Of a stretch of DNA of 43,249 bases, positions 2,646 to 28,800 are shown piece by piece. The notes under the pieces were generated by a model that worked only from the letters and a program-made list of their open reading frames with translations, was not told the DNA's origin and did no database searches. This DNA comes from Nemertoderma westbladi. Lineage: Eukaryota; Animalia; Xenacoelomorpha. The position numbers and the translations under genes are program-made. The first letter of the stretch is position 1; each line of letters begins with the position of its first letter. Location of the stretch: positions 1 through 43,249 of the forward strand of contig JAUCBJ010005838.1 of assembly GCA_032718475.1 (NCBI GenBank), in the 5' to 3' direction.

Positions 2646-3578
2646 ATGGCGAAACCGAAACTGCGTAACTCAAAGAGTTCCAAAAGTAGAGGCAAACGAT
2701 GGAACTACGCTTTGTATGCGATAGTTATCGCTTCTATCAGTGGACTTCTTTGTTACTATGGGGACCATATACAAATATCAATCTATCATATATTCGAGCG
2801 CCATCTGGCGACACCCGACGGCACTGTAAATCGGAGCCAAGTTGTTCTAGCTTCCGCTTCTAAGTCGGTAGATCTCGCCCATCGCGTAGTAAACTGTTCC
2901 GATGATTACCGCGAGGAGCCGTTCGCAGGCTGCACGCCTACAGTCTGCGGTCGCGGTGTAACCGATACCCTGATCCCACGCGAGATGGCGCTGGTCCTCC
3001 GCGGCCTGGCTTCACGGGGACTCCAACTCGGAGGATCCTCTGGTGGCGTCTCCGTGCTCAACCTCCACACCGGGGCGCTCTCCTACGACGATAAGTTCGT
3101 CGACGTCTATAAACTCATCCGGAAACGTCCCGATTCGGCGACCTACTTCCAGCCGGAGGCCCTCGAAGTCTACGACGAGACAAAAAGGAAGATTAAGCTC
3201 CGGATCGCGAACCACTTTGGCGTGGATCCGACCAAGTTGTTCCTAACGAGTCCGACGTTCTTCTCTCGGATGGAGGGGAAACCGGCACGAACTCTTCACG
3301 ACGAGTACTGGCACAGCCACGTCGACAAGGTCACCTACGAATCCTTCCATTACACCGCTCTTCTCTACCTATCGGACTACGGAACCGACTTCCACGGTGG
3401 CCGTTTCGTTTTCGACGATCTCCATGGCAACACGACTGTGGAACCTCGTCTCGGAAGGGTTTCCTTTTTTACTTCCGGTTCTGAGAATAAACATCATGTT
3501 GAACGCGTTACAGACGGGTTGCGTTACGCCGTTACAGTGGCCTTTACTTGTGATCCTACTAAGGAACTGTTACAATAG
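2646..3578 (+). CDS. OGFOD3: 2-oxoglutarate/Fe(II)-dependent oxygenase, OGFOD3 family, N-terminal membrane anchor, intronless
   Basis: Basic N-terminus plus TM segment (YALYAIVIASISGLLCYY). Family motifs GCTPTVCGRGVTD, GGSSGGVSVLNLHTGALS and LFLTSPTFFSR. HxD in EYWHSHVDK, distal His in ENKHHVE, 2OG-binding Arg in GLRYA. Confidence 0.9.
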   Translation: MAKPKLRNSKSSKSRGKRWNYALYAIVIASISGLLCYYGDHIQISIYHIFERHLATPDGTVNRSQVVLASASKSVDLAHRVVNCSDDYREEPFAGCTPTVCGRGVTDTLIPREMALVLRGLASRGLQLGGSSGGVSVLNLHTGALSYDDKFVDVYKLIRKRPDSATYFQPEALEVYDETKRKIKLRIANHFGVDPTKLFLTSPTFFSRMEGKPARTLHDEYWHSHVDKVTYESFHYTALLYLSDYGTDFHGGRFVFDDLHGNTTVEPRLGRVSFFTSGSENKHHVERVTDGLRYAVTVAFTCDPTKELLQ

Positions 3579-7347: not shown

Positions 7348-10274
7348 TTAAGAATACTGTGCCGGCTTATCTACAAAATTGCACCGCCACAACTCCCTAT
7401 CACCCATGACATTTGCTAGATCATCCGCATCATCAAGGCCAGTGTCCTTTAAGATGCGTCTCAAGAAAGTCATGTGCTGTCCACCATGCTTATTCACTCC
7501 ATGAGGCTGCCAAAGTACAAGATTATGCACTGGCTGGTCCTCACGGCGAAAGCAATGTCCTGCAAAGCGGAGGCGATTTTGTTCTAGTGTCAAACTTGGG
7601 GGAACCAATGAGACACCGCCAATGTTATATAGTGTCTGGTTGGAGATGTGTGCATTGAACTTGACACAATGAACCCGGCGTAGCATTCTTGTGAATGTGC
7701 CGTCCAGCGATTTGGTGTCCTCAGCAGTTAGAGCCCAGCATGGACTCCCATAGAGGAGTACTGGAACTACTGCTGCTCTAAATAACCGGACCTTAAGTTT
7801 CCGATTAATTCACGGTGACTTCCAAATCCTGGAAAGCCTATTCAAGGCTGCCCATGCCTTTCCCTTACGTATTCGAAGGTCCTCACCTGACTTCCGGTTC
7901 CATGATCTCAGGTAACAGAAGTCATCCACATGCTCAAGCATACCATCTTTTGAGCTTATGCTCATCCGATCAGAGACTTGCTGAGGACTTTCAAAGTTAA
8001 CTGTCAAAATTTTGGTCTTTCTGGAGTTAATAAAAAGACCAACACTAGAAGCAGCATGTTCTAATGAGCTGAGTGAGGAGCCGTTGGGCTCCCTCTAGTG
8101 ATTCTGAGAGTACTCCTAAGTCATCAGCAAAGTCTAGATCAGTTAGATACTTGGCAGGATTTCCTCGACTTCTGGAGCCAGTAGGTAGAGTTATCATCAC
8201 CCCATCATCATTATGATGATAGGACATGCGTAGAACATAGTCAACAACAATTATGAACAAGAATGGTGCAAGTGTGTCTCCCTGGAGGACGCCCCATAAC
8301 ACTTCAAATGGTTCTGTGTCACCGTCAACAGTAGACACAAATGTTGTCGAACCATCGTATACTGATCTGATTGCTGCAATAATTTCATCAGGAATCCCAT
8401 ATAATGAAAGTATGATGAACATACGTGAGCGAGTGACTGAATCAAAGACCTTGAAGAAATCAACAAAGATAACAGCCAGATGCCTGTCTTTCTTTTTTGA
8501 TAACTCTTCAATTATCTTTCTAAGTGCCAAAATGGAATCAATGGTCCCACGACCTTTACGGAACCCATTCTGATTTCCACGGAGCAGTCTCTCAATGGGA
8601 TCCCTGATGCGATTTAATATAATTATATTGTATGTATAGCTTTGCAGCAATCGAGATCAATGAGATTCCCCGAAAAGAACCATGGAGTGTTAGGTTGCCC
8701 TTCTTGGGAACTGGTACCAACTTATTTGTTTTCATTTCTTGTGGGACTCTTGTTGTATGTACGGTACATGTCTACTATGATGGGATAGATGAGCTTTAAA
8801 CACTCAGGTATTTTAAAGACCTCAGGGGGAACACCATCTACTCCACTGGCACGATTGGTCTTAATGCTCTTTGCAGCAGCCTTCACTTCTGCAAAGGAGA
8901 TATCACCAATGGGAATATCTGGGAGTACAGACTCAGACACTTTTACTTCTATAAAGTGATCAGGCAATACCATGTCATTATTGAGGAGCTTTTCAAAGTG
9001 GGCCTTCCAACCATTGAGGCGATCGGCTGGTGATTCAGCCTTAACCTTGGTGGTTGGTTGGCTTTTTCGACCAGCAAGCAAGTTGATCGATCTCGATGCC
9101 TGGGTTGATTGCCTGCTGTCGTCAGCATCATTGATGGCATCAACCTGTTGGTTTATTAGCTCCTGTAAATTAACAGAGTACTGCCTGTTCAGGGACCTAG
9201 ATGCAGCCTTAACTGCATTCTTGGCCGCTGTAGTCTGTTTGAGTCGGGACTCTTTCTGCGTCTTGTAGAGGTCATTTCGGCACTTCTGAATTTTGTTGTC
9301 ATTCCAGGGGGCCCGTTTCCTGTTTCGAGGGTATACAGGAACTGTTTCTGCAGCTGCTGCTGCTAACTTAACTGCCTCTGTGAAGGCAGTATAGTCCTAC
9401 AGTGATCTGCCGCCTCAGAGGCAAGAGCCTCATACCTGTTGCTCAGCTGTAGTGTGAAGCTGGATATCACACTTGGCTGTTGCAACAGGGAGGACCAGTC
9501 ATGCCGCGGCAAGGCAGATTTCGTTGTTCTGCTAGCACGCAGACTAAGTCTTACCTTGGCCAGAATAAGGCGGTAATCACTGGAGAAGGGTCGTAGTGTA
9601 AATGCATTACAGTCTTGTATAGAGCTCCTGTATTTCCTACGAAACAGGATATGGTCTATCTGGGATTTGTGACCACTGGGTCCACTATGAGTCCATAGCT
9701 TTCCAGTTCGCTTCTTGAACTGGGTTCCAGCCGAAAACAATCCATTTCCAGAGATAAAATCCTGAAGATGGACGGAATTTCGGTTAACACTATTGCTATA
9801 GACCCAGGGCGATGTAGGTGAATGATGCAGACTTACATTAAAGTCTCCCAGGAATGTTAAGAATGCATGCTGATCCACTCCATCAGTAGCTGCTTGTAGA
9901 AATTTTCCACCTCCTCTACAGGGGCAACACTAGTTGGAGAGTAGCACACAATCAGAACCACCTTAGGAAACTTCTTAGCCAGTCTACCAGAACATGAGAA
10001 GTGGCAACGGATGATGCGGTTAGAGATTTGGTCTATTTTGTCCAATGCTGCATGTGCAGTTGAATTCATCAATAGACCAATTCCACCATTGCCACTATCA
10101 TCTGCTAAAGCGAGGGCGAGTCGCCAACCGCCCCCCATGCCCTTAATCAGAACCTCATCAGTCTGTCCAGTCTGCATTCGGTGCTCTTGAACACCCACTG
10201 CACTAAGAGAAAGCTTATCTGCCAAGGCAGTCAGCTCACCCGAGTGTTAGGGTGTTTACTGAAGCTAGTCTAGT
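7348..10274 (-). pseudogene. RTE ORF: APE endonuclease plus reverse transcriptase, several frameshifts and stops
   Basis: APE motifs VGVQEHR, VCYSPT, LGDFN, QIDHIL, SDYRL. RT motifs QNGFRKGRGT, FVDFFKVFDSV, GVLQGDTLAPFLF, DLDFADD. RTE-type C-terminus RLRFAGHCFR. Confidence 0.9.
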
Positions 10275-10814
10275 AATCACTTTTATGTATATTAATCACA
10301 TTTTAGCAAATTAAACAAAATTAACCAAAATTAATTCAACGATCAAACAACAATCAATTAATTAATTACAACTATTTAACGCAATCCCAGCCTCGGCTAC
10401 AGCCGCGCTCATGCCGGTGTCCTGCATCGTCTGTCTCGTTGCCAGCCTAGCCTTCGGCATCTGTGCGCCCCGGAGGCACATGATGGAGGAACGGAGGAGG
10501 GCGAAACTCAACCGAGTCCTGATGAGGGAGAGAGTCTCCGAGTAGGGAGTGTCCCGTTTCGCCGACAGTAGGAGCGCGATGCGTGTGAGGAGTGCGTGGG
10601 CTGAGCGGCTGGCCCCACCAGTTGTAGCAATTATAAAAGGCGAGAAGCCGGCGTGCTCGACATCATTGATTCTCTCCTCGTACTTCCTCCATTTCTCTCG
10701 ATCATGTTTGCTGTAAGCCGCATCCATGGAGTGAGGATTGGAAGAGCACAGAGGATTGAATACCTTGACGTCGATATACACCCGCTCGAAACGCCCACCC
10801 CACAGCCCATTCGC

Positions 10815-11081
10815 TGTGAGCGGATTCAATTCCGCCTCACATAACCCCCATAAAGTAGGGAAGTGGCGCCTTTAAGCAATATTGGGGAGTACGAGGTTGA
10901 TTACAATCAACCTCGTATCACCCCCAATAATGCAGACAACACACGGCCCCAAAGAGCCACAGAAAAGAGGTTATAGGTCAAATCTCTTGGGAGAGGGAAA
11001 GTAGCAGCAGCGGGGGGGAAGCACTCCCACAGAGGTGGAGGCGAGAAGTGGGATAACAACCAATGGGAGAGGAGAGCATCC
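10815..11081 (+). repeat. Element B 5' LTR, left part
   Basis: Matches 32312-32578; interrupted at CATCC by element A. Confidence 0.92.
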
Positions 11082-12688
11082 TGTTCGCGGTATTTCAACT
11101 TTCCATAACGCGAGTTGAATATTTTTGTATTTATTTAAAATTGATTATTCCGATATTACTACTGGGTGCGGGACCATGGGTTTTGGGCACATTCAATAAA
11201 CTGGGGGCGATTTATGGGCGAACTTTGGGGCAACTTACAGGGTACGGGAATAATTTCATAGTTATAAGGGCCAGGGGGGATGGAAAATGCAAGCAGTATT
11301 CAGGTTAGCCTGAGTACTATTAGGCCCTGGCCAACTTCCTGCTGCCTGTAGGGGTGGATTTGGTAATGCGCCAGGCCTAAAGGACAAGGACTGCCCTTAG
11401 CGGTCCCTGGCCAACGGCAGCTACTACGAGACTGAAAAGAACTCGGAACGCTGACTGCTTGTGTCAGGGATTTGCGACGGGCACCGACGGCCCCTTAGTA
11501 GCCAAGCCGTTCTGGTTCTCGATGATCGAACCCCGGGGTTCGTGAGGGGTGGAGCGGACACGCGAACAGGTGGCCAACTAACGACTGCCCCCTGACCTAA
11601 GCCGTACTGGTTCTCGATGACCGATCCCTTCGGGGTTCGTGAGGGGTGGGACGGACATGCGAAAGGGCTGGCCACAGGACTGGTTTGACAAGGACTGCCC
11701 TTAGCGGTCTCGGGTCAACGGCAGCTACTACGAGCCTGAAAAGAACTCGGAACGCTGACTGCTTGACTGGGATTTGCGACGGGAACCGACGACAGACCCC
11801 TTAGCCAAGCCGTTCTGGTTCTCGATGATCGTTCCCTTCGGGGTTCGTGAGGGGTGGAGCGGACACGCGACGGGGTCGAAAGACAAAGGACTAGACTCGA
11901 CTAGACTCTACCGGCCTACCGACTGTTCGGAGCAGTTTCTCGGCTGCCGAAGCGACTACGAGCCTGAAACGGACTCGGAAAGCCTAGGTGGTTGGGTTTC
12001 TGTGATGAACTGACGGACCCCTAGCCAAGCCGTTCTGGTTCTCGATGATCGAACCCTTCGGGGTTCGTGAGGGGTGGAACGGACACGCGAACGGGTCCAC
12101 CGACACGACAGACTCCTAGCCAAGCCGTACTGGTTCTCGATGACCGAACCCTTCGGGGTTCGAGAGGGGTGGTACGGATACGCGACAGAGTCTACCGACT
12201 GGACCGACCCTTAGCCAAGCCGTGCTGGTTCTCGATGATCGTTCCCTTCGGGGTTCGTGAGGGGTGGAACGGACACGCGACAGGGTCGACCGACACCGAC
12301 ACTACGGCACTAAGACTGGGACTGAGGGAAAATCTGAGGAACATTAGGTAGGCTAAAATTCTGAGCGAACAGTGGGTTATTAAATAATATACCGTAGGGA
12401 TTTATATTATCGTGTATAATTATTGTGAATATTTGGTGTATATTGATTTGGGGAAGCCCAAAATTATTCTTAATCAGGGTTCAATATTGTTGACAAGGTT
12501 CAACAGAGTTCAGTTACATTAAAGAGTATATCCAACTAATGCAGCTTTTTCTCAACCGCAACCCTGCATCTCAGAAATCATTCCTTCTCCACAATCAATA
12601 TCCGGTGACTGGCCGGGGCTCGGTGGTCTGTTAAGTCACGTCTCCAGCATCGGCGTTTTTCCCCCCTGGTGTAGGAATAACGGCAACA
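11082..12688 (+). repeat. Element A 5' LTR
   Basis: Direct repeat of 23886-25492. Confidence 0.95.
11386..12292 (+). repeat. Array of structured repeats inside the LTR (six ~85-nt K-turn-like modules, three GNRA hairpins, two CTGCC/GGCAG hairpins); duplicated at 24190-25096
   Basis: Core AAGCCGTTCTGGTTCTCGATGATCGAACCCTTCGGGGTTCGTGAGGGGTGGAACGGACACGCGA near 11504, 11599, 11807, 12027, 12122 and 12217. Confidence 0.9.
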
Positions 12689-12690
12689 AA

Positions 12691-12703
12691 ATTAAGAATA
12701 ATT
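12691..12703 (+). promoter_or_regulatory. Non-tRNA primer-binding-site candidate (self-complementary to the LTR)
   Basis: ATTAAGAATAATT, 2 nt after the LTR end, is the exact reverse complement of LTR 12462-12474. No TGG-initiated tRNA PBS at this position. Confidence 0.55.
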
Positions 12704-12942
12704 AATGCGGTTAATTTTGACACGGTGTCAAAATTAAGAATAATTATCGTGGTCAACTTCAACTGGTGGAAGTTGAGAATCCTTCAATACTCTTCAAAAA
12801 CTCTCTACGTGCTTGCCAGCACCCACTACGAGGAAACTCTGGTATTTGAGTTGAGACAAAGTCGTGGTTTAATTAATCAGCAAACTCGATCTAACCAACT
12901 CGTAGTCGGCAGATCACATATTTGGAGAGTTGTTAACAGGGA

Positions 12943-13134
12943 ATGGAAGTATCGATCACACCCATTGATATAATTCAAGTTGAGCCAGGAATCTGGCACG
13001 TCGAAGTTGAGGTACAAGGAACGAACGTCGGACGATTCAGGATTACTGTTCGGGTGGTTCAAGCTGAGTACAATACCTACGAGGAACTGTTTTACGACAT
13101 CGCGTATCTCGCCATCGACGAGGCGTTACAATGA
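12943..13134 (+). CDS. Small acidic 63-aa ORF upstream of gag, stop overlapping the gag start (ATGA)
   Basis: ATG at 12943; TGA at 13132-13134 overlaps the gag ATG at 13131-13133. Confidence 0.4.
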   Translation: MEVSITPIDIIQVEPGIWHVEVEVQGTNVGRFRITVRVVQAEYNTYEELFYDIAYLAIDEALQ

Positions 13135-16100
13135 CAACAAATAACGTATCCGATACCGACGAGATGGATCACCACACAGACTCGGAAGCCGACGAGGTAC
13201 CAAACGTCAAAAACATGACCCGTCGGTTAGGGGCTCTTAAAGGCGGAGTAACCCGAGCGTATCAACGGATGGAGAAACAACTCAAGGGAGTCAAAACCCC
13301 CCTCAATGAGGTACAAACTCAGCTTCAAAGTATCCGAAATATCCTACAGCGGTACGAAAGAATGATACAGGCGTACCAAGAGCTCGTTCCCCCCACCGAT
13401 CTGGAAAACTACCCCAAGCTGGAAGAACACGTTGTACATTAGATGGGTTCCGCAAACAACACCGGAGGACCCTCAGCCTTGTGAGAGGCTATGAGGAACA
13501 GTATTACAAGAGGGCTGAAAGAACAGACGCGGAATCAGTACGATCCTCCAGCATCAGGACAGGAGTACATCGCAAGAGAATGGGGTCCACCAGAAATCAG
13601 CACTCCAGCGCTAGGAGCGAGATATCCGGCTCAGCGTGCAGTTCTCAAGGGGCGCCGCCACTCCGAGACCAACTGCGAGAGCGGAAGGCATTAGCCCTCA
13701 AAGCTCGGATGGAAGATGAGTATATTCAACTGCAAGCCGAGCAAGATGTATTAGCTGCAGAAACCCAAAGGCGAGAGGCCGAACAAGCGGCCGAACGGCA
13801 GGCCGAACAACGTGAACAGGAAGCCGAACAACGCAGGCGAGAGGACGAACAACGCAAACGAGAGGACGAACGACAGGCCGAACAACGCAGGCGAGAAGAC
13901 GAACAACGCAAACACGAGGACGAACGACAGGCCGAACAGCGCAAACACGAGGCCGAACAACGCAAACACGAGGACGAACGACAGGCCGAACAGCGCAAAC
14001 ACGAGGCCGAACAACGCAAACAGGAGGCCGAACAACGCGGACGAGAGGCCGAACGGGAGATCGAACAACGTAAATGGGAAGCAGAAATGCGTAAACAACA
14101 CGCCGAGGCCCAAGCAATTCTCATCCACAAAAAGAACGCGGATATTGCAAAACTCGCGGAATACGAAGCCGCACTTATAGAACGAGATATTCAACTCTAC
14201 GAGGACTGGGAGAGGGATATAGATCAGGAATATGAACCAATCCCGGTACCGGAATTAGAAAAGTCATTTATACCGACAGCGGCGAAACTTCCGAAACCCG
14301 AAATCCCGCCTACCAAACAGTCTACGCTATCGGCACAAGCACCGGTGTTCCATCCACCACCGGCGACGCTAAAGAACGAGGAACCTTATTTCCCATCCAA
14401 CACCACGACAGCGAGTGTACCCAAGTACGAGCCTGAAAAGGACTCGGAACGGGACGCCACTCCCCGATCAAACAACCCATTTACATCAACACCACAAACT
14501 CGTAGCCGCGTCATTATTAAAACTCCGCCTATCATTGATCCATCAAGTATGGGAGTGAGTGCCAATAACTATAACCCTCCGAGTCACTCCAGTTCAGACG
14601 ACGTCAGCATCATCCGGGCGTTGGAGAACCGCCTTGCCATGCCGAAGATGGAGATTCGCACCTTCGAAGGAGATCCCGTCGATTACCTCAGATTCAAGAA
14701 ACGGTTCTTTGCGCAGATTGGATCAACGGACATAGCCGACGCACAGAAATTGGTATATTTATCGCAATACCTGGGTGACAAACCCCGCAGAATTGTTGCA
14801 TGTTTTGAAGGAGGTTCTCATGAGGCATACTATGACGCATGGAAAACTCTAGACAAAAGATACGGAAATACCGGAACTATAATTAATAAAACTCTAGAGA
14901 GACTGATACAGGATGCAGGATCACTAGGGGACCCACAGAACATACAGGAATTCTCCGACTCTATGAAAGATGCCTATTATACTCTGAAGCCCTTAAATAA
15001 GGAGGACCAGGTGAACAACATTCTAAACCTCCGACAGATCGCCCGGAAGTTCCCCGGATGGCTACAAAGTAAGTGGGCTTATAAATGTGTAGATCTCCGG
15101 CGCAGACATCCAGATCGAGATCCTAGCTTCCTTGAAATGTCGGCATTCCTGGACGATATCTCCGAAGCCATGAATGACTCGATGTTTTCAAAACAAAGTC
15201 TCGCAAAGTTGGACGGAATAGAGAGCAACTCTAGGAGTAAGATAACCCCTCCGAAACCAAGATTCCGCCCCCCACCGGTAAGTACGATGGCCATCACCAT
15301 GGCTGAGGATTCCGACGACGAAGACTACGAGGAACCGACATCCGCCAAGGAATGGGCATGTTATCTCGCGAATTGGGCCCCCGAAAGGGAAGGCGTCACA
15401 AATTCCCTACTCTGTCTCTTCTGTGGGGAGAAACATAAAGTGGAATTCTGCAGGAAGTTTCAGTTCGCCGAACTCGTCCCACGTTTCGAGGCGATAATGA
15501 AACACCGAGGATGCTTCCGGTGTCTTGGAACAGGTCACTACGTTCGGGATTGCGACCAAAGGTCGTGCTGTGCTGTCTGTAACGACCAACGCCATCACAC
15601 GCTCCTCCACATCCCCGCGAACTTCGACTTTACTACCCTCCCCTTTCGGATCGAAGCCAGGCGAAGAGGAGAAACAAACCACGTCTTCAAAGGAACCCGG
15701 ACAACCCAACGGAGAGAAACCAACCCGTTTAAAATCTCCACCGCTACACCACAAGTAACAAATATTTCGGCCACGATTAATCTTATAAATCGCCGCTACA
15801 TGGTTTTCGCAAAGGTAATCCCAGTAAGGATCCAAGGAGTCGGCAAATCTTTGACGACACTCGCATTCCTCGATAACGGGTCCGACGGAACCATCATCGA
15901 CCGGGATTTTCTCGAGCAACTCGGCCTAGAATATGAGCCTTGTAAACGGCCCATACAAACCATCACCGATAACAGAGAGGTAGAGTCCGGGGAGGTGCAA
16001 CTCCAGATGGAAGGAGTGATGAAGGGCTACGAAACGGCTAAGTTAACCATAAAGAACGCCTTGGTACACACAGACCTCCGGGTGCGGTTCCGACAATCAG

Positions 16101-19100
16101 CCGAGTACGCCCCCCTCATACAATTGGACCGGGACGATGTAGACCTGAGGTGTCCGCAGTTGGACGTAAACCGTATCACCCTACTGATCGGACTTGATAC
16201 ACCGGAACTACACATCCCCACCGGAGATATCGCCCGATCTATAAACCAGGATGACGGATTTTATGCTGAACGAACAATAATGGGATGGACACTCTGCGGC
16301 ATTAAGGAGGAAACCACGGACACCTATACCTACCTTCCCAAATGTCAGATTAAAGAGAATGTAACCTCCGTGGGTTACTGCTCAGCTTCGGATCTCGACG
16401 AGGATTTGTTTCTGGAAACCGAGAAAACCCAACGAGAGATGACGAAATATTTTAATTTGGAGACCCAGGAGTTCGCGGAAAAGGACGAAAATCCATCCGA
16501 AGAGGACCAATATTGTATGGACGTTCTCGACCAGGCCACGTTTAAAGACGGACACTGGAGTTCACCTATGTTATGGAAGGACCCAAACAAACCAATGGCA
16601 AACAACGCCAGCATGGCACTTAGGCGACTTAAAGGGATTCTACGCCGGTTGAATGACCAACCCGAGATAAAGGAGAAGTATAACACCGTAATCCAAGGAT
16701 ATCTCGATGATGGATTAGCAGAAATGGTACCACGGAACGAACTGCAAGGTGGTAAAAGAACATATTATCTCCCGACCCACTATGTAGTAGAAGCCCGCAA
16801 AGGTGGGAAAATCCGAGTGGTAAATGATGCTGCCGCTATATACCAGGGCGAATCCCTAAACAGTCAACTTTATACGGGACCCAACATATATAGCACACTC
16901 ATCGGCGTATTGATCAGGTTCAGGGAAAACCGGGTAGCATTCACCTGTGACATCAAGGCCATGTTTCATCAAGTTCGTACATTACCAAGAGACTCGGACT
17001 GTCTACGTATCCTATGGACGGATAAAACGCTTACTCAACAGGAGATTAGCCAACTCACGATAAAGGACGTAGACATAATGCGTATGGTCGTCAGGATCTT
17101 CGGCGCTAAGGACTCGCCGGTAGCATGCAGTGACATGCTAAAGAGGACGGCAACCAATTGCGAAAACGAGTTCCCTCCAACCGTCATAGAAACCATTCGA
17201 CGATGCTTCTACGTGGACGACGGATGCGCTGGCGCGGATAATGTAGATGAGGCGTATCAGCTAGCAATGGGGATGGTAGAATGTCTAAAGAAAGGAGGGT
17301 TCCCACTCGTGAAGTTCAGATCCCACGACAAAACACTTATGGAAAAGTTTCCGGAGGATATCCGGCTGGAAAATAACAAGATGTATTCGGAGGATGTGGA
17401 ACATCGTGTACTCGGGATTGAATGGGACATAGAATCAGATGAATTCATCTTCAAATATAAACCCCTACCCAAGCCTATGACAAAAAGGGGATGTTTGTCG
17501 ATAAAAAGTGCAATCTTCGACCCACTAAATTTCATATCTCCAGTAACCTTGGCCGGAATGAACCTGATTAAGGAAATGTGGATAGAAGGACTGGGATGGG
17601 ACGAAGAGCTTCCCCCATACCTTAGCGTCAAATGGAGAAAATGGACGGAGCAACTCGAACACCTACATCTTATGCGGATACCTAGACCGTTCTTCCTCGA
17701 TAAACTGCCCACCGATATCTTCCAGCTCCACACCTTTTCGGATGCTTCAAATACCGGAATCGGCGTAGTAACCTTCTTACGGAGACTAAGTAGCGATGGA
17801 AACGGCGATACAAGCTTCTTATTCTCCAAAGCAAAGACGGTATCCGGGGAATTCGTAGCAACGATTCCGAGACTCGAGCTACAAGCTGCAGTTTGGGCAG
17901 TAAGACAGAATCGCATGGCCATGCGGAACCTACGGATCCCCATAGAATCTCAACACTTCTGGGTAGATTCGAGTATAGTTCTCTATTATCTCCACTCTCC
18001 ATCACGGCGTCACACCACGTTTGTTGCAAACCGAGCCACAGAGATTAAACAGTGTACCGGCCGAGAACAGTGGCATCACGTAAACGGGAAGGAAAACCCA
18101 GCGGACTAATCAAGCCGAGGCGCCACCCCAAAACAACTCGGTAAAAGTAAACTCTGGCTTACAGGCCCGGAATTCCTACGGCAGCCACAGTTAACATGGA
18201 GTACCCGATTCGACCCCGAACTCGATAGCGGAAAATACTCCGAGGACGATAAAGAGATTCGTAAAATCCATCGAAGCAACGCGGTGGAAATTTATAGTTG
18301 CCTGACTGAGCCTGCAAAGGACTCGGGCAGGCACTATAACGTCGCGACGATCACTCAACTAGCGACGTCTTTACATCGGTTGATCGAGCGAACTTCATCC
18401 ATGAGACGGCTCGTCCACCATGTTATAACCCTTCGCAACTTCCTACGGTGGAAAAACAACAAACCGATAGTTCAACGGAATATACAAGAACTCATTATCG
18501 CGGAGAAGTGTATTGTTAGATATGTCCAGAAAGAAAGTTTCCCCGATGAATGGGAACAACTTAGTGCGGGCAAAACGTTGAAACCGGACAGCCCAGTCTA
18601 CCAACTAAGACCAATGATGGGAGAGGACGGACTGATCCGACTGAATACCCGGATGGCAAACGCCCCGGTCGAATATGAGGTTAAATACCCGGCGCTCTGC
18701 CCGGAACGTCGACACTAGCTAAGCTATTAATTCTACAATGTCACGAGGACAACCACCACGCAGGACAGAATTGGATTATAGCTAATATAAGACAAAGATA
18801 TTGGATCACCCATATCCAGCCACTGATCCGGAAAGTGTTGAAACGTTGCTTCACCTGCAGACGTTACCTAGCGCCACCAATCACTCAAAAGATGGCCGAC
18901 TTACCAGCCACCCATCTACAAGCGGATTCCCAGCCATTCTACGTCACCGGGGTGGACTGTTTCGGACCGTTCACGGTTATTGAACGACGATCCAACATCA
19001 AATGCTGGGGAGCCATCTTCACCTGCCTGAGGTCTAGGGCAATTTACCTAGATATCGTGGTAAATCTGACACAACACGCATTCATCAACGCTCTGCGTCG

Positions 19101-19916
19101 GTTCGTGGCGAACAACGGGACATGCCACCACATGTATTCCGATAATGGTACAAACTTTGTGGGAGGAGAAAGGGAACTCAGAGAGGCGATCGAGGGATGG
19201 TTTACCGATAACACACCGCATCCCAAGTCTGGAAGGAACACCAGATACAGTGGCACTTCCAGACCCCCTTAGCCCCCCATACGAGCGGGGTATGGGAGAA
19301 ACTGATCGACCTCGTGAAACGATCCATGCGCGTCGCTCTAGGCGATACCCGGGTAACCCATGATACCCTCCGCACAACATTCTGCGAGATCACGGCTACC
19401 CTGAACAACCGACCTATTGTCCCTATCCGCGACGACCCCACAGACCTGGAGCCCCTCACTCCTAACCACCTACTGGGGAGACCCAAAACCCACGTTCTCC
19501 CGGAAACCATGTTCCCGGATCCCAACGAGATCGCGAAGCATACAAACTGGAAAAAGGCCCAAGCGTTGGCAGCGCATTGGTGGAGAATTTGGGCCCAGGA
19601 ATATCTCATAACCCTCCGGACCAGGAGAAAATGGAACAACACCTACCGGAACGTCGCAGTTGGCGACATGGTACTAGTTAAAGAAGATCTCAAAGACCGC
19701 GTTCACTGGCCTGTGGCGCGGGTCGTGACCATACACCCAAGTAAAGACGGACTTGCGAGGACTGTGACGATACGAACGGCAAAGGGCCACTACCAACGCC
19801 CTATCCAGAAGCTGTGCCTTCTTGAAGGCAATGACAGTGGTGATTCTACGAGAGGTGATAAGATCCCTACTCAAGATCCTGCTGTGGACATTGGTGACAA
19901 TTACAAATCTGTGTAA
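13131..19916 (+). pseudogene. BEL/Pao gag-pol polyprotein, disrupted by frameshifts (~13439, ~18715, ~19230) and a stop (18107-18109)
   Basis: DUF1759-like PKMEIRTFEGDPVDYLRF. Zn knuckles CLFCGEKH, CFRCLGTGHYVRDC, CAVCNDQRHHTLLH. Protease FLDNGSDGT. RT RVVNDAAA, DIKAMFHQV, FYVDD. RNase H LHTFSDAS, TIPRLELQAA, NPAD. Integrase HEDNHH...CFTC, VDCFGP, SDNGTNFVG, APHTSGVWEKL. C-terminal WAQEYLITL. Confidence 0.95.
13770..14100 (+). repeat. Coding tandem repeats (EQRK/EDERQA coiled coil) in gag
   Basis: Repeated GAGGCCGAACAACGCAAAC-type units. Confidence 0.85.
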
Positions 19917-20191
19917 CCCTTCTCATCATGTTGACAAACTCTTATAAACTGTGATTTATCGACAACGAATTATGGACCCCCTTTAAACAACTGTAACCAC
20001 GCAATGGTATTTGTGTTTCCTCGTGTGTTATGTGGAGTCCAGCATCACCCTGCAGATGTTTCGACTGACGCAGGGTCGTTTATGTATTGTTTACCCTGAT
20101 TTTGGTCATCAGGACCTACGATATTGGATTATTGGAAATGGAAAAGATTTGAAGTGGAATTCATTGTATTCATTGCAGTATGTTATGTTGT

Positions 20192-20610
20192 CCGTTGCGT
20201 GCGCAGTTTGGGGCGTAGGCGGTGTAACGAGTCCAGCTGTAGATCCTGGATTGCCGCGCAACACCCCCTCTATCCCGTTATTCTGGTGGGTCCATGGTGC
20301 ATCCACATGACTTCGACGATAGAGGGTTTTATGTTTCTCAGTCGCGTTATTCTGGTGGGACCGTTACGTGGATTTTGGGGCGTAGGCGGTGTAACGAGTC
20401 CAGCTGTAGATCCCAGAATGTTGCGTAACCCCATCCCACATGACTTCGTCGACTGAGCTTTATGTTGTTGGGAGTGTTATTCTGGTGGGTCCCTGGTGCA
20501 TCCACGTGACTTCACTCCTAGCGTCTTCATTGTCCGTTACGTGCGCAGTTTGGGGCGTAGGCGGTGTAACGAGTCCAGCTGTAGATCCCAGATTGCCGCG
20601 TAACACCCCT
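20192..20610 (+). repeat. Interleaved structured repeats between pol and the accessory ORF
   Basis: Motif X TTTGGGGCGTAGGCGGTGTAACGAGTCCAGCTGTAGATCC x3 (20207, 20375, 20549). Motif Y GTTATTCTGGTGGG...CCAC[A/G]TGACTTC x3 (20277, 20346, 20476). Confidence 0.9.
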
Positions 20611-21163
20611 TCCACGACAAAGATTAACCAAAGAAAATGATTGAATATAGTTGGAAATGATGAAAAGGATCAGACAACTCTACTATAAACCTGAATGATG
20701 ACGCGTATGCTGATGAAAATGTGATGATGCGCACCCTGGTGCTGCGCTTATAACAAATGATGATAGCCGGGGGGCTATAAACCCAATGATGATGTGGAAA
20801 TAAATAAATGTGAAATAAATGGTGGAACTAAATGTTGAAATATATGTGGAAATAAATGAAATGAAATGAAATAATAATGAAAGGAAAAAAGACAAAAAAA
20901 AGGTATAAAAGAGGTCAAAGAATATAATTGGAAAAAAAAAAAGGACAAAAAAGTCATAAAAAACTGGTTGGATATTATGTATAGCTATAGTAACTGTAAA
21001 TGCTGAATGTATTAGCAATAAGATGATAGATGCCTATATAGCAATGTTATTTAATAAACTGAATTAAATAAAAAAAAACTGAATTATTCTGCTATCGCTA
21101 TAGTTTCAGACTTTCTGGACTTATAATTAACTGAACTAATTTGTAACGGATATAATCGTAAAT

Positions 21164-23719
21164 ATGGACCCAAATCGCCAAATTATCGGCGAATTACGTA
21201 ACACGATAGATCTACTGGAATATTCGCAACCCGGATCCCCTGACTTTGATACAAATTGGAGCATTCTGCTAAATGAGAACGTATGAGAAGTTAAATTCAC
21301 CGGGCGAGAGGGACCGGATTCTAAGAATCTACGAGCCCTCCGGTTAGCCGATGCTAGTACGAGACTGAAAAGAACTCGGAACGCAAAGGCAACCGGAGGG
21401 GACGATTCGTCGTTTTGGGAAACGTTCCGGCAGAACGTCTACAGATCCCGATGTTTGATCTACGACAACGAGGGAAACGCGACGCCCACCTCGAAAGCGA
21501 TTACGTTGGCGAGATGTCAAAGTTTCGTCGACGACAAGAGTACGTACCTAGCCCACTGGGGAAACCTGTCGGAGTGTACGGCGAAGCTTCGAGAGGAACG
21601 CGTATCGATTATCCAAAACCGCGACGACTACCAGGAAAAGTACGGGGCGAAAGAATACGGTCGATCCTTAGTCGTCGTCCTCGGAACCCTGGACGGTTTG
21701 GTACTGGTGTGCCGAATATTCCCGACACCCAGACAGGAAGTGCAGGCAGCCGGAGCGATCTGGTTGCTGCCTCCGGAAATCCAAAAGATCCTCTTCGACT
21801 TCGACGTCATTAAAATCGGGTCGGATATCAAGGCGGACGTCCGGAACGACTACGCGAACGCTCCCGCAGGAAGAAACCGACGAAACGACCTCAACGCACT
21901 TAGCCATTGCATCGACACTCAAACGCTGCTAGCCTGGTTACGATTCGCCGAGTTCATGCGAGGATTCCAAGAAGTGAGACCGACGAAATCCGGGATCGGC
22001 TACCTCGCTGTGCTCAACGGCGGTATCGACTTCAAACCCCAGAAATTCCGGGACTATAATAAAATATACGGCGGATACCCGGGATTAGAGATAAAGAGCG
22101 AGCGAGAGGGTCGATGGAAGGACGTCGATCGGAAGTGGACGATACACCAAAGGTGGGAGAATCCCGATCGACGGAGCTATATCTACGTCGTTATGGAATG
22201 CTACACCGTCGCTAAGTTTATCTGTAAAACTCTCGATAACCTTATTACGGCGGTCCCCCTTTCCTTCGTCGACTACGACTGGAACGAGGTTATAAACCAC
22301 GCGTTTAAAGCGGTCGAGAACATTACACCGGGAGAATCAAAAACGCCCGCCGTTATTGATTCCTGGGACGAGAGCGGACCTTACGACATCCCTACGATTA
22401 CCGAACTTCTCGGTGCGGAGGAGCCTCTGATCTCCTCGGAAGGGGAAGAGATATGGCTAAACGAGGGTGTTCTACTCTCCACCCCGAAGCGACAACTCGA
22501 GCCGGAGGCCGCGTACGGACCGGCCGCCAAACGGGTCGCCTCGGCCGAACCGATGAAGAGAGCAGGCGTCTACACCCCACGCGGCTCCGGTAGCCCCGCG
22601 AGAGAGGTAGCCACTACGGCTGCATTGAGCGACTTCGGCGACATATGCCAACGGTTATCCCCGTATCCTTTCCCGGGCGGCGAAGATTGGTTGTCGGAGA
22701 TTCCGAGTACCAGCCACCAACGGACCCGCTCAGCGATACTGGTCGAGGAAGGCCCCAGCGATGCGCCGACACCCGACGATCTCCTCGGTATCCCTCCGTC
22801 GAAAACCCCGGCACCTCTTCGCCGACCAGCGGTGGCTACTACACCCGCCGTTCCTCAGGACCCTATGCGACTAACCCGTTGGTACGCCGAGCAAACTGAA
22901 TGGATCCACCGCCAGAAACGGTCATCCGAGTTGAGACCAGCGGGACACAAAGAGGGTTATCGGAGCGAGAACATACTACGCAAAAGCCTAGCATTCCGCG
23001 GGCTACCGACCACCGAGAATATTCCGAAGAGCGACCGACGACTCGAATACTACGTCGGCGTCCCGATTCCGATATTCCCCGGTCGAGAAACGCAGTTGGA
23101 GGTATGCGGCGACTGCGGCTCGGAGCAGTGCCCACGCGGCAGAAGGAATCGGGTTACCGATTCTTGCCTCCAGCTCCTCGGGATACTCTATTGCCCATAC
23201 TGCGCGATATCGGGCCACGACGTTTCGGTCTGTCCGATCCTTTATAACCTCTGCACCACGTGCGGTTTCCGTGGACATTCCGCTATGGGCAATATGGTCA
23301 CGTTTGAGACATACGCAAACAGCCACTTAAAGACCAAGTTTCGGAGAAACACTCGGAATATCGCGCAGGAGATGGCGTGCGGATATTTCTCCTTCCCGGA
23401 ACGCCTCCACACGTCGGCCTCGCTACCCTTCCATTACGTGGATCTGCTACTGAGCGCCGGATTATTCGGTCCATTCGAAGTTATTAGACGATTATACTCG
23501 TATAAAGAGGAGTTCGGTGACGGAGAATGGTTCCTAGAGGCACGCAACTCCGAGTTGGAAAGACGAACCGACATGATCCCGATGCCTTCGAAAGGAAGAG
23601 CCGCCAGGAGATAAGCCGAAGCGTTACTCACAATGGATGTTGACGCTCCTCTACCAGCCATAGCGATCGATGAGAGTCGACGGGCGAAGAGACGAAAGGC
23701 GTACCAGAAAAAGAAATAA
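21164..23719 (+). CDS. Accessory ORF of element A: DEDDy-type 3'-5' exonuclease, disordered linker, CCHC zinc knuckles and basic tail; in-frame stops at 21284 and 23612
   Basis: ATG 21164 is in frame with the 719-aa ORF. ExoI-like IYDNEG. WRN/EXD-like LLPPEIQKILFDFDVIKIGSDIKADV (ExoII), CIDTQ, KSGIGYLA and WENPDRRSYIYVVMECY (ExoIII-like). CPYCAISGHDVSVC and CTTCGFRGH. Reading through 23612 adds ...RRAKRRKAYQKKK. Confidence 0.75.
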
Positions 23720-23885
23720 TGGATTGGGATATTCCAGGAACATTTATCGAACATTTATTTTTATACAAACTCTAGGCCAAATTAATTAAAAACTATGCAA
23801 TATTAAATTTGTGATTTTTTATATTGGGAATGACCTACGCAAACTCAATCGACCGACAGACTTCACGAAGGTCATTGGGGGGGAC

Positions 23886-25492
23886 TGTTCGCGGTATTTC
23901 AACTTTCCATAACGCGAGTTGAATATTTTTGTATTTATTTAAAATTGATTATTCCGATATTACTACTGGGTGCGGGACCATGGGTTTTGGGCACATTCAA
24001 TAAACTGGGGGCGATTTATGGGCGAACTTTGGGGCAACTTACAGGGTACGGGAATAATTTCATAGTTATAAGGGCCAGGGGGGATGGAAAATGCAAGCAG
24101 TATTCAGGTTAGCCTGAGTACTATTAGGCCCTGGCCAACTTCCTGCTGCCTGTAGGGGTGGATTTGGTAATGCGCCAGGCCTAAAGGACAAGGACTGCCC
24201 TTAGCGGTCCCTGGCCAACGGCAGCTACTACGAGACTGAAAAGAACTCGGAACGCTGACTGCTTGTGTCAGGGATTTGCGACGGGCACCGACGGCCCCTT
24301 AGTAGCCAAGCCGTTCTGGTTCTCGATGATCGAACCCCGGGGTTCGTGAGGGGTGGAGCGGACACGCGAACAGGTGGCCAACTAACGACTGCCCCCTGAC
24401 CTAAGCCGTACTGGTTCTCGATGACCGATCCCTTCGGGGTTCGTGAGGGGTGGGACGGACATGCGAAAGGGCTGGCCACAGGACTGGTTTGACAAGGACT
24501 GCCCTTAGCGGTCTCGGGTCAACGGCAGCTACTACGAGCCTGAAAAGAACTCGGAACGCTGACTGCTTGACTGGGATTTGCGACGGGAACCGACGACAGA
24601 CCCCTTAGCCAAGCCATTCTGGTTCTCGATGATCGTTCCCTTCGGGGTTCGTGAGGGGTGGAGCGGACACGCGACGGGGTCGAAAGACAAAGGACTAGAC
24701 TCGACTAGACTCTACCGGCCTACCGACTGTTCGGAGCAGTTTCTCGGCTGCCGAAGCGACTACGAGCCTGAAACGGACTCGGAAAGCCTAGGTGGTTGGG
24801 TTTCTGTGATGAACTGACGGACCCCTAGCCAAGCCGTTCTGGTTCTCGATGATCGAACCCTTCGGGGTTCGTGAGGGGTGGAACGGACACGCGAACGGGT
24901 CCACCGACACGACAGACTCCTAGCCAAGCCATACTGGTTCTCGATGACCGAACCCTTCGGGGTTCGAGAGGGGTGGTACGGATACGCGACAGAGTCTACC
25001 GACTGGACCGACCCTTAGCCAAGCCGTGCTGGTTCTCGATGATCGTTCCCTTCGGGGTTCGTGAGGGGTGGAACGGACACGCGACAGGGTCGACCGACAC
25101 CGACACTACGGCACTAAGACTGGGACTGAGGGAAAATCTGAGGAACATTAGGTAGGCTAAAATTCTGAGCGAACAGTGGGTTATTAAATAATATACCGTA
25201 GGGATTTATATTATCGTGTATAATTATTGTGAATATGTGGTGTATATTGATTTGGGGAAGCCCAAAATTATTCTTAATCAGGGTTCAATATTGTTGACAA
25301 GGTTCAACAGAGTTCAGTTACATTAAAGAGTATATCCAACTAATGCAGCTTTTTCTCAACCGCAACCCTGCATCTCAGAAATCATTCCTTCTCCACAATC
25401 AATATCCGGTGACTGGCCGGGGCTCGGTGGTCTGTTAAGTCACGTCTCCAGCATCGGCGTTTTTCCCCCCTGGTGTAGGAATAATGGCAACA
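23886..25492 (+). repeat. Element A 3' LTR
   Basis: Direct repeat of 11082-12688, preceded by a G-run PPT. Confidence 0.95.
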
Positions 25493-25497
25493 CATCC

Positions 25498-25822
25498 ACT
25501 AGGTACAGAGGCCAAGATACTGTAAGATTAGCCAATGTATATATTATATTGCATGCAGTGAAGTTATTCAGTTATTCCATTCATTAGTGCAGTTAGGTGA
25601 CATTTTCGTACCGTCACCATCATTACCGGTCAGTAGCATCTATATTACTTAACTTATCTTATTACCGTCACCCAGTCAACTGTGCTATTATATCTCATTG
25701 CCGTATATCAATCAACCTGTAACAGCATATCAATATCAGAACAACAAACTATTATCTTCTTTCACAACGAGCGGCGACGCGTAACGAAAACAAACCAGTC
25801 GGGATCCCCTGATCCCATCACA
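25498..25822 (+). repeat. Element B 5' LTR, right part (TATA-like ~25538, Inr-like TCAGTT 25568)
   Basis: Matches 32579-32903; 267+325 = 592 bp reconstitutes the LTR. Confidence 0.92.
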
Positions 25823-25887
25823 GTACGAAAATCTAGACAACTGCTAAAGCTGTGACTGCCAGCCACCAACAAAGAAAGCGTTAAAGG

Positions 25888-28800
25888 ATGAGCGAAGCCC
25901 AAAACCTAGAGGGAGAGACGACACCGTCGCTGACCCCGGACGATACCAACGAAACGATCCATGAGGCCACGACGCGACGGTATTGACCCGCAATGCCGGA
26001 CTCGCCGGAACGGGACGATCCGGTAGCCCAAGCGGGGGGCGGCCGTCTACCAGGATGAGGGAATGAGTCGACGCACAATGGTGATCGACGTACCGATGTC
26101 GCCGGCCAGCCACAGGCCGAGGGCGACGGACGGCCCACCAGAACGGCGACGGTGGGGCCGCCGGTACGACGCCAAACCAGGAGGGGAGGAGGAGAGGTCA
26201 GCGACGAGGATGTCGGAACCAGTGACCGGCTCTGATGAGCCTACAACGCAACAAAGAAACAACTCAAGGAGGCTAGAGAAGGAGTAAAGATAGATCAAGG
26301 GAAGTTGAGCCGGCGACTAGGTGAGTCGAATAAACACTTCAACTAACTAGTTCGCTTCGGGCAGGGAGAACTAGCCAGTTAGAGAGCGAGGGGGGTCGCC
26401 ACCGAACTATTTGAACTGTGGCGATCTGGGATAATGGAGCCACAGATAGTGTACATAGGGCTGTATTTAGTGGATGCTAGGGGAATTAAGTTAGTGGGTT
26501 GGGCAGACCCGCACGAGGGCGAATCCGAGATTAACCCCGAGGATTCGGTCTCGTCGGCTAGCGAGAACCCCAGAAAGCGGGGGAAAGTTAGTAGGACAGA
26601 GAGGCGACGGGAGTCCATCGCAACCGACAAGTCCGCTACATCCTCCGCAAAAGCAAGAAGGGTGTTAGAAATAGATCCGGCGTGTCAGTTGGATATGGTG
26701 GTGCTAGACCAGAAAGAGTTAGAGAGGCAGTTGGAAGAGGGAACTGCGTTGTTGGAAAGAGAGAGAGAACTGGCGAGAGAGAATAAAGAGAGGGCTGAGA
26801 GGGTCGCGAGAAACTTTAGAGAGTGTGAGGAGATATAAATAAGGGAAGGAAAGGAGCGAGAAGAGCGAGAGGCGAAAGAGGCGAGCGAACGTAAGGAGCG
26901 AGAGGCGAAAGAGGCGAGCGAAAGTAAGGAGCGAGAGGCGGAAGAGGCGAGCGAACGTAAAGAGCGAGGGGCGAGAGAGGAGAGTGAACGTAAAGAGCGA
27001 GAGGTGAGAGAGGAGAATGAACGCAAAGAGCGAGGGGCGAGAGAGGAGAATGAGCGTAAAGAGCGTGAGGCGAGAGGGGCAAGCGAGTGAAAAGAGCGTG
27101 AGGCGAGACGGCTTGAGAGGATTGCGAGAGAGGCGGAATTGGCCGAGCAGAGTTTGCGAGAGGATAGGGAGAGAGAGAGAACGGGAAAGCGTGTGCGGGA
27201 TGATATGCACGCCCGGTTGAGGGGGCTTATGCAATATCAGGCCAAACAGAAGCGCAGTTGGGGCTGTCAGAGAGTGAGGCTGGCTCGGGTAGTGTTTACG
27301 AGGAGCCAGAAGTTATGGAAACGTTTGTTATTACCCCACTTACAGGGACCGGACGACATACCCAAGACTGGTGTAACCGTACGGGCGGGGAGGGGGGGGG
27401 GGTAATAATAATACGTTAGAAAACGTTAATATTAATAGTACCGTAGTGGATAACCCTAATCAAACTTTCATTGCAGCAAATAACATTTTGCCCGGTAATA
27501 GTAATTTAAATCCGAATGATCCTAATTTAAATGTAGAAAATGATTCAAATAATCTAGATTCGAATATACAAAATAATTAAATTAATTTAAATTTAAATAC
27601 GCAAATAATCTAAATAATAATCTTACTTCAAACGAACAAAATAACCCCAATTCTAACCAAAATATACGAAATAATTTAAATAATAATCCGAATTCAGAGA
27701 ATAATTCTAATAATTTCAATAATTTCAATAATAATATTGATAACGGGGCTATTAATAATAACATGGAAGACACAGGTGGGCCGGCCAACCGAAGCCTGCA
27801 AGGCAACGTAGTTAGTACGCAGGGAGTAGCGGGGGTGAGTGACCCCGACGGGAGCCTGCAAGGCCACGTAGTTAGGCAGGGAGTAGCGGGGGTAAGTCAA
27901 CCCGACGGAAGCCTGACAGGCTACGCAGTTGCACAGGGAGAGGTGGGGGTGAGTAGAACCAGCCGCAGTAGAGACAGTGCGTCGACTAGAGAGGGGTGTA
28001 GAAGCGAAGTAGGAGGTAGTGAAGTTAGAAGTGGCGAGTGGGGGGGGGGGGGGGCTACGGGCGCCCCACCACGGAAGATTAGTGGCGAGAGAGGGGGAGC
28101 AGAGAATGGAGCAGAGTCAGTGGGGTCGAACTCCGGGAGATTGCCGTCGCCCTGGAGAGACACACCGCACGCCGAGAGAGGGGTACAGAATGTACCGATA
28201 CGAAGACGAGAACAGGAGAGGGGATCGAAGAGAAACTTCCCGATGGGATATAGCTGCCGATCGAGAGTACGGTAGTCGCAGGGAGATTCGAGATTCGAGA
28301 AGATTAAACTTCGGTTCGGGAAGGGCACATGCAGACTGCAGGACATGCTGTAGGACTTACTGCACATACTATTATAGGCCATGCTGGGAGAGATAGTGTG
28401 GCGATAGGGTAGCGCGAACGACGGGATTAGATCCGGGAGTCGCGGAGTACATGCCAGTAGGTAGGCAAGAAGTGGATAGGCTTATATCGGTACCAGCACA
28501 GCAGCATGACTATAATATGCAGGGACATAACATATATCCAGGGGAGGGGAGAGTTATTGCAGATAGATGTATGGGCCCCAATATATTAACATCAACCCCA
28601 GTACCAAACATACCGATGGGGGGGGGGGGGGGGGGACAGGGTGACATTCCCCCATTACATTATCAACAATACACTCAAACAGGAATAAGAACATCGAATC
28701 CCCTGGATGAGGACAGGTCGTGCGACACGGAAATATGGAGGGGGCCGCTACCCCCAATGATATATCCGAGACAGAGAGAGTCAACAGGCCCGATGGGCGG

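Follow-up and report, generated by a model that had tools for sequence, protein, structure and literature searches.

What could six related hairpins, lined up in each long terminal repeat (LTR) of a retrotransposon, do for the RNA that carries them? This question is raised by a contig of the xenacoelomorph Nemertoderma westbladi (JAUCBJ010005838.1, assembly GCA_032718475.1), which was analysed over its whole length of 43,249 nucleotides (nt; hereafter the window) and which contains, at 11082-25492, an LTR retrotransposon of the BEL/Pao class. An earlier, sequence-only reading had described the hairpins as covarying kink-turn (k-turn) modules and had proposed that they form a multivalent protein-binding scaffold, or an unknown catalytic RNA, in the 3' untranslated region of the genomic RNA. 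Our study identified all six modules and found the k-turn sequence pattern in each of them, together with a second base-pairing register that is predicted to be more stable. The scaffold is also the best reading here, in the form of a multivalent docking platform for a host protein of the L7Ae family, most likely Snu13/15.5K, and we give this reading slightly less than an even chance; the placement in U3 is probably wrong, and nothing supports the catalytic alternative.

Six hairpin modules in each LTR

Six modules of about 88 nt (A1 to A6, Table 1) lie on the plus strand of the 5' LTR and recur 12,804 nt downstream in the second LTR. A covariance model built from the six copies identified exactly 12 sites in the window (E ≤ 6e-22, self-matches by construction), the next match having an E value of 2.1, and a gapped sequence pattern agrees with it, recovering 10 of the 12 copies with no match in 100 shuffles. 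From base to tip, the module consists of an outer stem, a UA/GA loop (AGUA/GAA in A1) that we take to be loop-E-like, two G-C pairs, a 4x4 loop (CAAG/ACAC in four copies), an 8-bp stem, a 2-nt bulge with four pairs, the GAU bulge, GA/GA, a third pair, C-G and G-C, and a short stem. The UUCG cap that had been ascribed to every module closes five of them, A1 being the exception; similarly, the conserved internal loop of the earlier description is an exact 8x8 match in four copies, but five of the six folds resolve it into two loops parted by the two G-C pairs. Within the LTR, these modules are interspersed with those of a second family, B, in the order B-A-A-B-A-B-A-A-A. The array has grown by block duplication, with a 304-nt unit and a 95-nt spacing, and its ACCGAC-type linkers occur eight times against 1.1 expected, a count that is not independent of the duplications. 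The folding z-scores from A1 to A6 are -1.72, 0.49, -2.22, -3.39, -2.93 and -0.55, that is, below -2 in three copies, and the plus strand folds more stably than the minus strand in all six. An enrichment of N6-methyladenosine (DRACH) sites in the array was considered and rejected (36 seen, 31.9 expected).

Table 1. Coordinates of the LTRs, genes, hairpin modules and candidate signals of the BEL/Pao element.
Feature	Position	Strand	Remarks
5' LTR of BEL/Pao retrotransposon	11082-12688	+	TG...CA, 1,607 nt; 4 differences from the 3' LTR; CATCC target-site duplication on both sides
TATA-like TATAAG (11263) and initiator-like GCAGT (11293)	11263-11297	+	Candidate start upstream of the array
Module B1	11412-11458	+	Tip of long hairpin ~11388-11485 (z -4.31); loop-E-like loop, 4-bp stem, bulged A, UGAAA cap
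Module A1	11488-11575	+	K-turn hairpin; bulge 11521-11523; UUCG cap absent; basal AGUA/GAA loop
Module A2	11586-11672	+	Most diverged copy; third k-turn pair C.U; loop CCUAAG/CAUG
Module B2	11716-11762	+	Tip of long hairpin (z -2.21)
Module A3	11793-11881	+	K-turn hairpin; third pair U.U
Module B3	11944-11990	+	Shared B core, different long stem (z -2.23)
Module A4	12013-12100	+	K-turn hairpin; third pair U.U; best folding (z -3.39)
Module A5	12108-12196	+	Third pair C.A; two-sided changes in middle and outer stem
Module A6	12203-12293	+	K-turn hairpin; third pair U.U
ATTAAA, then GU-rich sequence	12379-12384	+	Candidate poly(A) signal downstream of the array; second ATTAAA at 12518
gag-pol, BEL/Pao type (DUF1759, aspartic protease, Peptidase_A17, DUF5641)	13131-19916	+	Split over several frames in this copy
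Module B in gag coding sequence	14413-14459	+	Codon phase 0
B-like hairpin in pol	18292-18339	+	Apical part only, GCAA-type cap, no loop-E-like loop; z -4.76
Module C, three hairpins (20188, 20355, 20530)	20188-20604	+	Invariant 37-nt core; between pol and accessory gene
Accessory gene	21164-23614	+	3'-5' exonuclease-like N-terminal part, CCHC-like zinc knuckles; in-frame stop 21284-21286 in this copy
Module B in accessory gene frame	21345-21391	+	Codon phase 2; z -6.60 for 21330-21400
3' LTR	23886-25492	+	Second copies of A1-A6 and B1-B3 at +12,804; polypurine tract precedes

The claim that the modules covary holds in a reduced form. The four outer stems and the middle-stem change of copy 5 that had been listed as compensatory are all present. 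When the outer stem is included, two-sided changes occur at three of 27 pairs in A3-A6, a level reached by 14-26 of 500 shuffles, in a set that omits A1 and A2 because their outer stems do not align. In the inner part of all six copies, they occur at one of 21 pairs, which 236 of 500 shuffles also reach, and the position of the copy-5 change carries purine mismatches in A2 and A6. The covariation is real but thin, amounting to three two-sided changes, none of them within the k-turn; the hairpin is thus supported, and the k-turn itself is invariant, backed by pattern rather than by covariation.

Repeats are common in LTRs, and the plain growth of the array by block duplication, together with the weak inner covariation, invites the explanation that these are neutral tandem duplications, or enhancer repeats acting at the DNA level, with incidental folds. 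We regard this as very improbable, since it is already disfavoured by the two-sided changes in the outer and middle stems of A and in the flanks of B, by the retention of the B core across unrelated stems and two reading frames, by the strand asymmetry of folding, and by the UUCG caps in five of the six copies.

The class of the element follows from its Pfam domains (DUF1759, aspartic protease, Peptidase_A17 and DUF5641), and the features of BEL/Pao membership are present: a DUF1759 gag, protease, reverse transcriptase (RT), Peptidase_A17, integrase/DUF5641, direct LTRs and a target duplication. The class is described as known from animals only (PMC3118150). The closest RT-RNaseH relatives share only 41-42% identity, so that the lineage stands apart in the databases. 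The element resembles other BEL/Pao elements (Belpaoviridae) in its domains and their order, its TG...CA LTRs and its 5-bp target duplication, and it differs from them in its 1.6-kb LTR, its 0.9-kb hairpin array, and its accessory gene encoding an exonuclease-like, zinc-knuckle protein. Past the 5' LTR, at 12689-12790, a TGG primer-binding site is absent directly after 12688, and the region contains a duplicated AT-rich 17-mer and an 11-bp inverted repeat, with a second hairpin after them. As the LTRs differ at only four sites and are flanked by the CATCC duplication, the insertion is recent. At three of the four sites (11812, 12127 and 12681) the 3' LTR has a CpG-type transition, and two of these three fall on one and the same stem position in A3 and A5. 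This is a hint that methylation has driven decay since the insertion.

The k-turn pattern and its competing register

The rules used here to recognize k-turns were taken from PMC8191799, PMC5689011, PMC6298567 and PMC1874613, as far as these sources set them out. A 3-nt bulge followed by tandem G.A and A.G pairs is present in all six copies, as GAU-GA facing GA, and so are the other standard features, namely C:G at -1b:-1n, a U at position L3 of the bulge, and C:G at 4b:4n. The helices on both sides are formed, the C helix having C:G at -1 and four pairs (two of them G.U), and the other having C:G and G:C at positions 4 and 5. The third pair (3b:3n) is U.U in four copies, C.U in one and C.A in one, and in none is it Watson-Crick. 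Such a pattern is rare by chance: in hairpin-preserving shuffles, 984 (relaxed descriptor) and 132 (strict descriptor) of 200,000 sequences carried it (0.07-0.5%), and among 210 internal tiles there were one and zero cases, respectively.

A shift of register, which creates a 5-nt bulge, gives the same strands a second way to pair, and both registers fit all six sequences. Two observations on the variation among copies lean towards the k-turn register. First, the 23 junction columns vary at just two sites, 3b and 3n, and these lie opposite one another in the k-turn register alone; only nine of the 253 possible site pairs are opposed in that register. Second, across 55 core columns, facing variable sites form three pairs under the k-turn map (p 0.015) against two under the other (p 0.15), in a post hoc comparison whose copies share ancestry and which relies on a symmetric reading of the 4x4 loop. 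The k-turn part of the earlier description is sustained as a sequence match, rare in shuffles and present in all copies, and on balance we think it probable that the k-turn forms in vivo.

Several results weigh against a protein-binding k-turn array. Under the Turner model, which has no k-turn term, the shifted register is 4.0-6.0 kcal/mol more stable in all six copies, and the pair probability of the k-turn register is at most 0.005 in each. The covariation of the inner part is no better than in shuffled alignments, all support comes from paralogous copies of one element, no independent homolog having been found, and z-scores at or under -2 occur in only two of the 100-nt windows that cover the array and in 9 of the 215 that cover the element. 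Distant BEL/Pao relatives that carry the accessory gene lack the array, so the clade does not need it. Finally, by the rules of Lilley, C:G at -1 and at 4b:4n favours folding by metal ions without protein (PMC5689011), which is compatible with an architectural function no less than with one that depends on protein.

If the shifted register is the more stable by this amount, kinking probably needs a protein. In the selection experiments (SELEX, systematic evolution of ligands by exponential enrichment) described in PMC1874613, the winners for Snu13p had a U at L3, a closed 3-nt bulge and a third pair that was nearly always U.U, with no other sequence demand noted there. L7Ae binding is described as folding every k-turn tested, and the GAU-bulge k-turns of archaeal l7ae leaders as changing their fold when bound (PMC6298567). 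Host 15.5K would likewise pull each hairpin of the array from the bulged helix into the kinked register, and the bound protein would coat or compact the RNA end, with effects on export, on stability and protection, or on packaging. The kink would probably serve as a binding site rather than as a hinge for docking the tip, because the apical arm is only a cap whose loop and stem vary, with no conserved docking loop.

The A sequence fits Snu13/15.5K, and it does not fit SBP2 or the box C/D motif. Box C has the sequence UGAUGA and box D the sequence CUGA. A box C/D small nucleolar RNA (snoRNA) was rejected, since such RNAs are described as combining U.U at 3b:3n with G:C at 4b:4n (PMC5689011), and the A modules have C:G at 4b:4n in all six copies; a match to the Rfam family sR36 (E 3.7) was far below threshold. 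A selenocysteine insertion sequence (SECIS) with read-through was also rejected. The modules do share with SECIS hairpins a quartet with tandem GA (an AUGAU/UGAG-type core, of the AUGAN/NGAN non-Watson-Crick kind) in an untranslated-region hairpin; however, the 3-nt bulge is closed, the UUCG cap has no AAR, the upper helix is short, and no Rfam SECIS family matches. In the account of PMC1874613, SBP2 needs a large loop and a purine-pyrimidine fourth pair, and the A modules have neither, their fourth pair being a pyrimidine-purine C-G, which disfavours SBP2.

Invariant loops on variable stems also resemble catalytic cores, and retrozymes are reportedly an instance of ribozymes being common in retroelements. 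The catalytic RNA of the earlier reading is, however, the least probable explanation that we considered, and a self-cleaving ribozyme is only a remote possibility. The Rfam search that had been recommended was run with Rfam 15: no family matches the modules, no ribozyme family reaches its gathering threshold over the window, and none appears at E ≤ 10 over 10400-13200 and 18200-21500. The A module is an unbranched hairpin made of recognizable structural motifs, with no conserved loop-loop complementarity seen, and cleavage at 6-12 sites of LTR RNA would cut the template of reverse transcription. Upstream of the element, a hammerhead-like candidate at 10495-10570 was discarded (stem I absent by eye, z -0.71, no Rfam match).

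Two further hairpin families and the position of the array in the RNA

The A module is one of at least three hairpin families in the element. Module B, which the sequence-only reading had missed, has a loop-E-like loop, a 4-bp stem, a bulged A and a UGAAA cap. Its 47 columns include 24 that are invariant across the LTR, gag and accessory-gene copies; its flanking stem covaries at two pairs (three cells), a level reached by only two of 500 shuffles; and the coding copies lie in codon phases 0, 0 and 2. The pol copy has a UGCAA cap and matches the B model at E 0.072. With an invariant core in LTR and coding copies alike, covarying flanks and differing codon phases, module B gives independent evidence of selection on the RNA of the element and is the strongest sign of such selection that the sequence offers. 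Module C has a symmetric GUA/GUA loop and a 10-nt apical loop and lies upstream of a candidate splice acceptor near 21107; its covariation is uninformative (one of 21 pairs, reached by 181 of 500 shuffles), and no Rfam family matches it. In the docking-platform model, B and C would serve as further cis signals.

The spread of these modules bears on two alternatives that dispense with a host protein. The hairpins may instead be sites for the element's own proteins, either the Gag zinc knuckles or the accessory protein, and act as dispersed packaging or transport signals, with A in its bulged register and an incidental k-turn match. The bulged register is indeed the predicted ground state, B is spread through LTR, gag, pol and the accessory gene, C occurs only in the part absent from a spliced accessory RNA (given the candidate acceptor), and the element encodes extra zinc knuckles. 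Nevertheless, the k-turn pattern is rare by chance, variation falls at 3b and 3n, and both A and B are missing from the relatives that carry the accessory gene, so that we consider this explanation unlikely.

We judge equally unlikely a self-assembling RNA, a natural tectoRNA in which B caps (GNRA or T-loop) dock into the 4x4 loop of A while the k-turns bend the arms, producing compaction or dimerization without a host protein. Each LTR has six receptor-like loops and there are six B-type caps along the element, and the k-turn rules predict at least partial folding by ions. The A loop shares C2:G10, A8 and the AA/AC platform, including the AA step, with the 11-nt GAAA receptor in all six copies, A2 has U3 and U9 in addition, and A5 has G6.U7. 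On the other hand, C1:G11 occurs in no copy, U3 in one and G6.U7 in one (the other five have G6:C7), and every copy has an inserted A. According to the measurements given in PMC2275092, the change from G6:U7 to G:C costs 4.33 kcal/mol and changes of C1:G11 at least 1.73 kcal/mol; having lost features worth 1.7-4.3 kcal/mol, the loop is at best a weak variant of the receptor and not a member. As for the caps, UGAAA (five of six) and UGCAA (one of six) fit both GNRA and the T-loop consensus YGNRA, as given in bioRxiv 2022.12.26.521914. However, a U.C pair closes one of the caps, only one extruded base stands before the closing C-G in the T-loop reading where T-loops usually have two, and CAAG/ACAC misses the URA/RA consensus of internal-loop T-loop receptors.

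Where the array lies in the RNA depends on the candidate transcription signals of the LTR. The GCAGT call relies on the initiator consensus. TATAAG stands at LTR offset 182 with GCAGT 30 nt later; of 2,000 shuffled LTRs, 96 contain such a pair. Downstream of the TATA-like box, ATTAAA first appears at offset 1,298. In two related LTRs (L006 and L007), whose limits were inferred from the matching polypurine-tract/TG junction, TATATAA is at offsets 193 and 190 and AATAAA at 462 and 466; the LTR in the window thus has about 830 nt extra, which is approximately the length of the array. With a TATA-like box upstream and the first ATTAAA downstream, the array would fall in R, at both ends of the RNA, and this location seems to us somewhat more probable than not. 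On this comparison, the array would have grown within R, giving the genomic RNA a copy at each end, and the LTR alone could yield a 1.1-kb RNA. The earlier assignment to U3, and hence to the 3' untranslated region, is probably wrong; it would be retained by alternative signals, with a start at TCAGTT (12510) and the ATTAAA at 12518, and an AATAAA also occurs at 11195. A nested hairpin with a 10-bp stem (11236-11345, z -2.0) spans the candidate TATA box and start site.

With a start near 11295, a leader of 1,836 nt would precede the first gag ATG (13131), and k-turn bulges would account for six of its 12 upstream ATGs. Loop-E-like loops are common in internal ribosome entry sites (IRESs). The array could accordingly be imagined as a translation element, in which a structured leader of 1.8 kb recruits ribosomes or factors for gag translation through an IRES or a shunt. 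This is improbable, and clearly more so than the sites for the element's own proteins, because B also lies within coding sequence, far from any start, the ATG of each module follows from the GAU-GA of the k-turn, and the start site is itself a prediction. A more ambitious extension of the docking-platform model would make the R region of each LTR a 1.1-kb modular non-coding RNA running from TATA-like box to poly(A) signal. Its six k-turns would be loaded with host 15.5K or act as a sponge for it, and its arms with T-loop/GNRA caps would dock into the 4x4 loops. Such a ribonucleoprotein scaffold, hijacking a core protein of snoRNA particles (snoRNPs) and U4, has no described counterpart, and we hold it to be a long shot.

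Relatives, surroundings and known counterparts

The accessory gene offers a way to find relatives of the element. A full HMMER search identified seven relatives of its protein among 1.84 billion representatives, and word-indexed protein searches with the protein and its alignment gave no match. A scan with three of these relatives found nine loci, four of which (L004-L007) have a BEL/Pao pol just upstream, and three reach a 3' LTR. The A and B models found no match over the nine loci (best E 0.41 for A and 3.7 for B). Beyond these loci, the module A pattern had no match in viral contigs or metagenomes and one in prokaryote genomes (L010), and a looser pattern had one in viral contigs (L011). 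Both single matches were rejected as chance, as they have no A-like fold and model E values of at least 0.36. The B pattern was absent from viral contigs and prokaryote genomes, and the C pattern from viral contigs. So far, therefore, the array appears specific to this lineage. We found no description of a BEL/Pao clade with an exonuclease/zinc-knuckle accessory gene in the literature, nor of a k-turn array in an LTR, subscription journals being thinly covered.

The accessory protein of L007 passes the Pfam DNA_pol_A_exo1 cut-off (26.1 bits against 23.6), the family profile has weak matches to EXD2 and to a CCHC-domain structure (E about 0.001), and the copy in the window seems to lack the first acidic motif found in its relatives. 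An AlphaFold model of the protein was unusable, with a mean predicted local distance difference test (pLDDT) score of 35.8. At L001, a stand-alone relative of the accessory gene has direct repeats on both sides and no pol nearby, and it is closely preceded by a long, imperfect inverted repeat (L001 8070-8470).

The element was inserted into the LTR of an older element, as 10815-11081 plus 25493-25792 match 32312-32873. This target (10815-11081 plus 25493-32873) is an older, decayed LTR element with gag and protease only, which contains a G/A-rich repeat tract at about 31300-32050. Elsewhere in the window, nested long inverted repeats at 40165-41507, whose arms of 55-113 nt are 86-93% complementary and surround AT-rich DNA with 46-nt tandem repeats, are like a miniature inverted-repeat transposable element or a foldback element. 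One open reading frame with a 2-oxoglutarate-Fe(II) (2OG-Fe(II)) oxygenase domain occupies 2646-3578, with a 40-nt imperfect inverted repeat on both sides (2580/3652), and fragments of non-LTR retrotransposons (RT and endonuclease) lie on the minus strand at 8045-9878 and 38621-39958. The window contains no tRNA gene.

Returning to the docking platform for an L7Ae-family protein, its constituent motifs are known, and a cis-acting structured RNA in a retroelement is a known kind of system. The A modules share the 3-nt bulge with U at L3, the tandem G.A/A.G pairs, C:G at -1 and a non-Watson-Crick third pair with the k-turns bound by Snu13/15.5K (the U4 5' stem-loop, U3 B/C and box C/D) or by L7Ae (the archaeal l7ae leader); they also share a fold that may depend on protein and, with the l7ae leader, the GAU bulge. 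They differ from all of these in standing six in a row in an LTR, capped by a hairpin loop and without a guide, with conserved 4x4 and UA/GA loops below the kink, and from box C/D specifically in the fourth pair. Retroviruses have cis-acting elements that assemble ribonucleoproteins, such as the Rex-response element (RxRE) in R of human T-cell leukaemia virus, the Rev response element (RRE) of HIV and the constitutive transport element (CTE) of Mason-Pfizer monkey virus. The array resembles them as a structured RNA in or near an LTR, with likely repeated protein-binding loops that would direct the fate of the RNA, and its probable location in R parallels that of RxRE; in contrast, it is built from k-turn hairpins, its proposed partner is a host L7Ae-family protein, and it has no sequence or Rfam similarity to them. 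The closest functional precedent that we found, by analogy, is the tandem-GA motif of BC1/ID RNA, described as a transport signal bound by hnRNP A2 in a retroposon RNA (PMC4033767). Both have a tandem G.A/A.G motif in a retroposon stem-loop and a host protein as partner, known or proposed; BC1/ID is, however, of the short interspersed type, mammalian, and has one motif per RNA, whereas here an LTR element carries six full-consensus k-turns per LTR.

The BEL/Pao class is little studied, also as to the export, protection and packaging of its RNA. Should its k-turns bind 15.5K, the element would be a case of mobile DNA that uses a core snoRNP and spliceosome protein as RNA adaptor, which we did not find in the literature. 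The element is also a natural set of modular hairpins, with k-turn, loop-E-like, receptor-like and T-loop/GNRA motifs, some of them kept within coding sequence.

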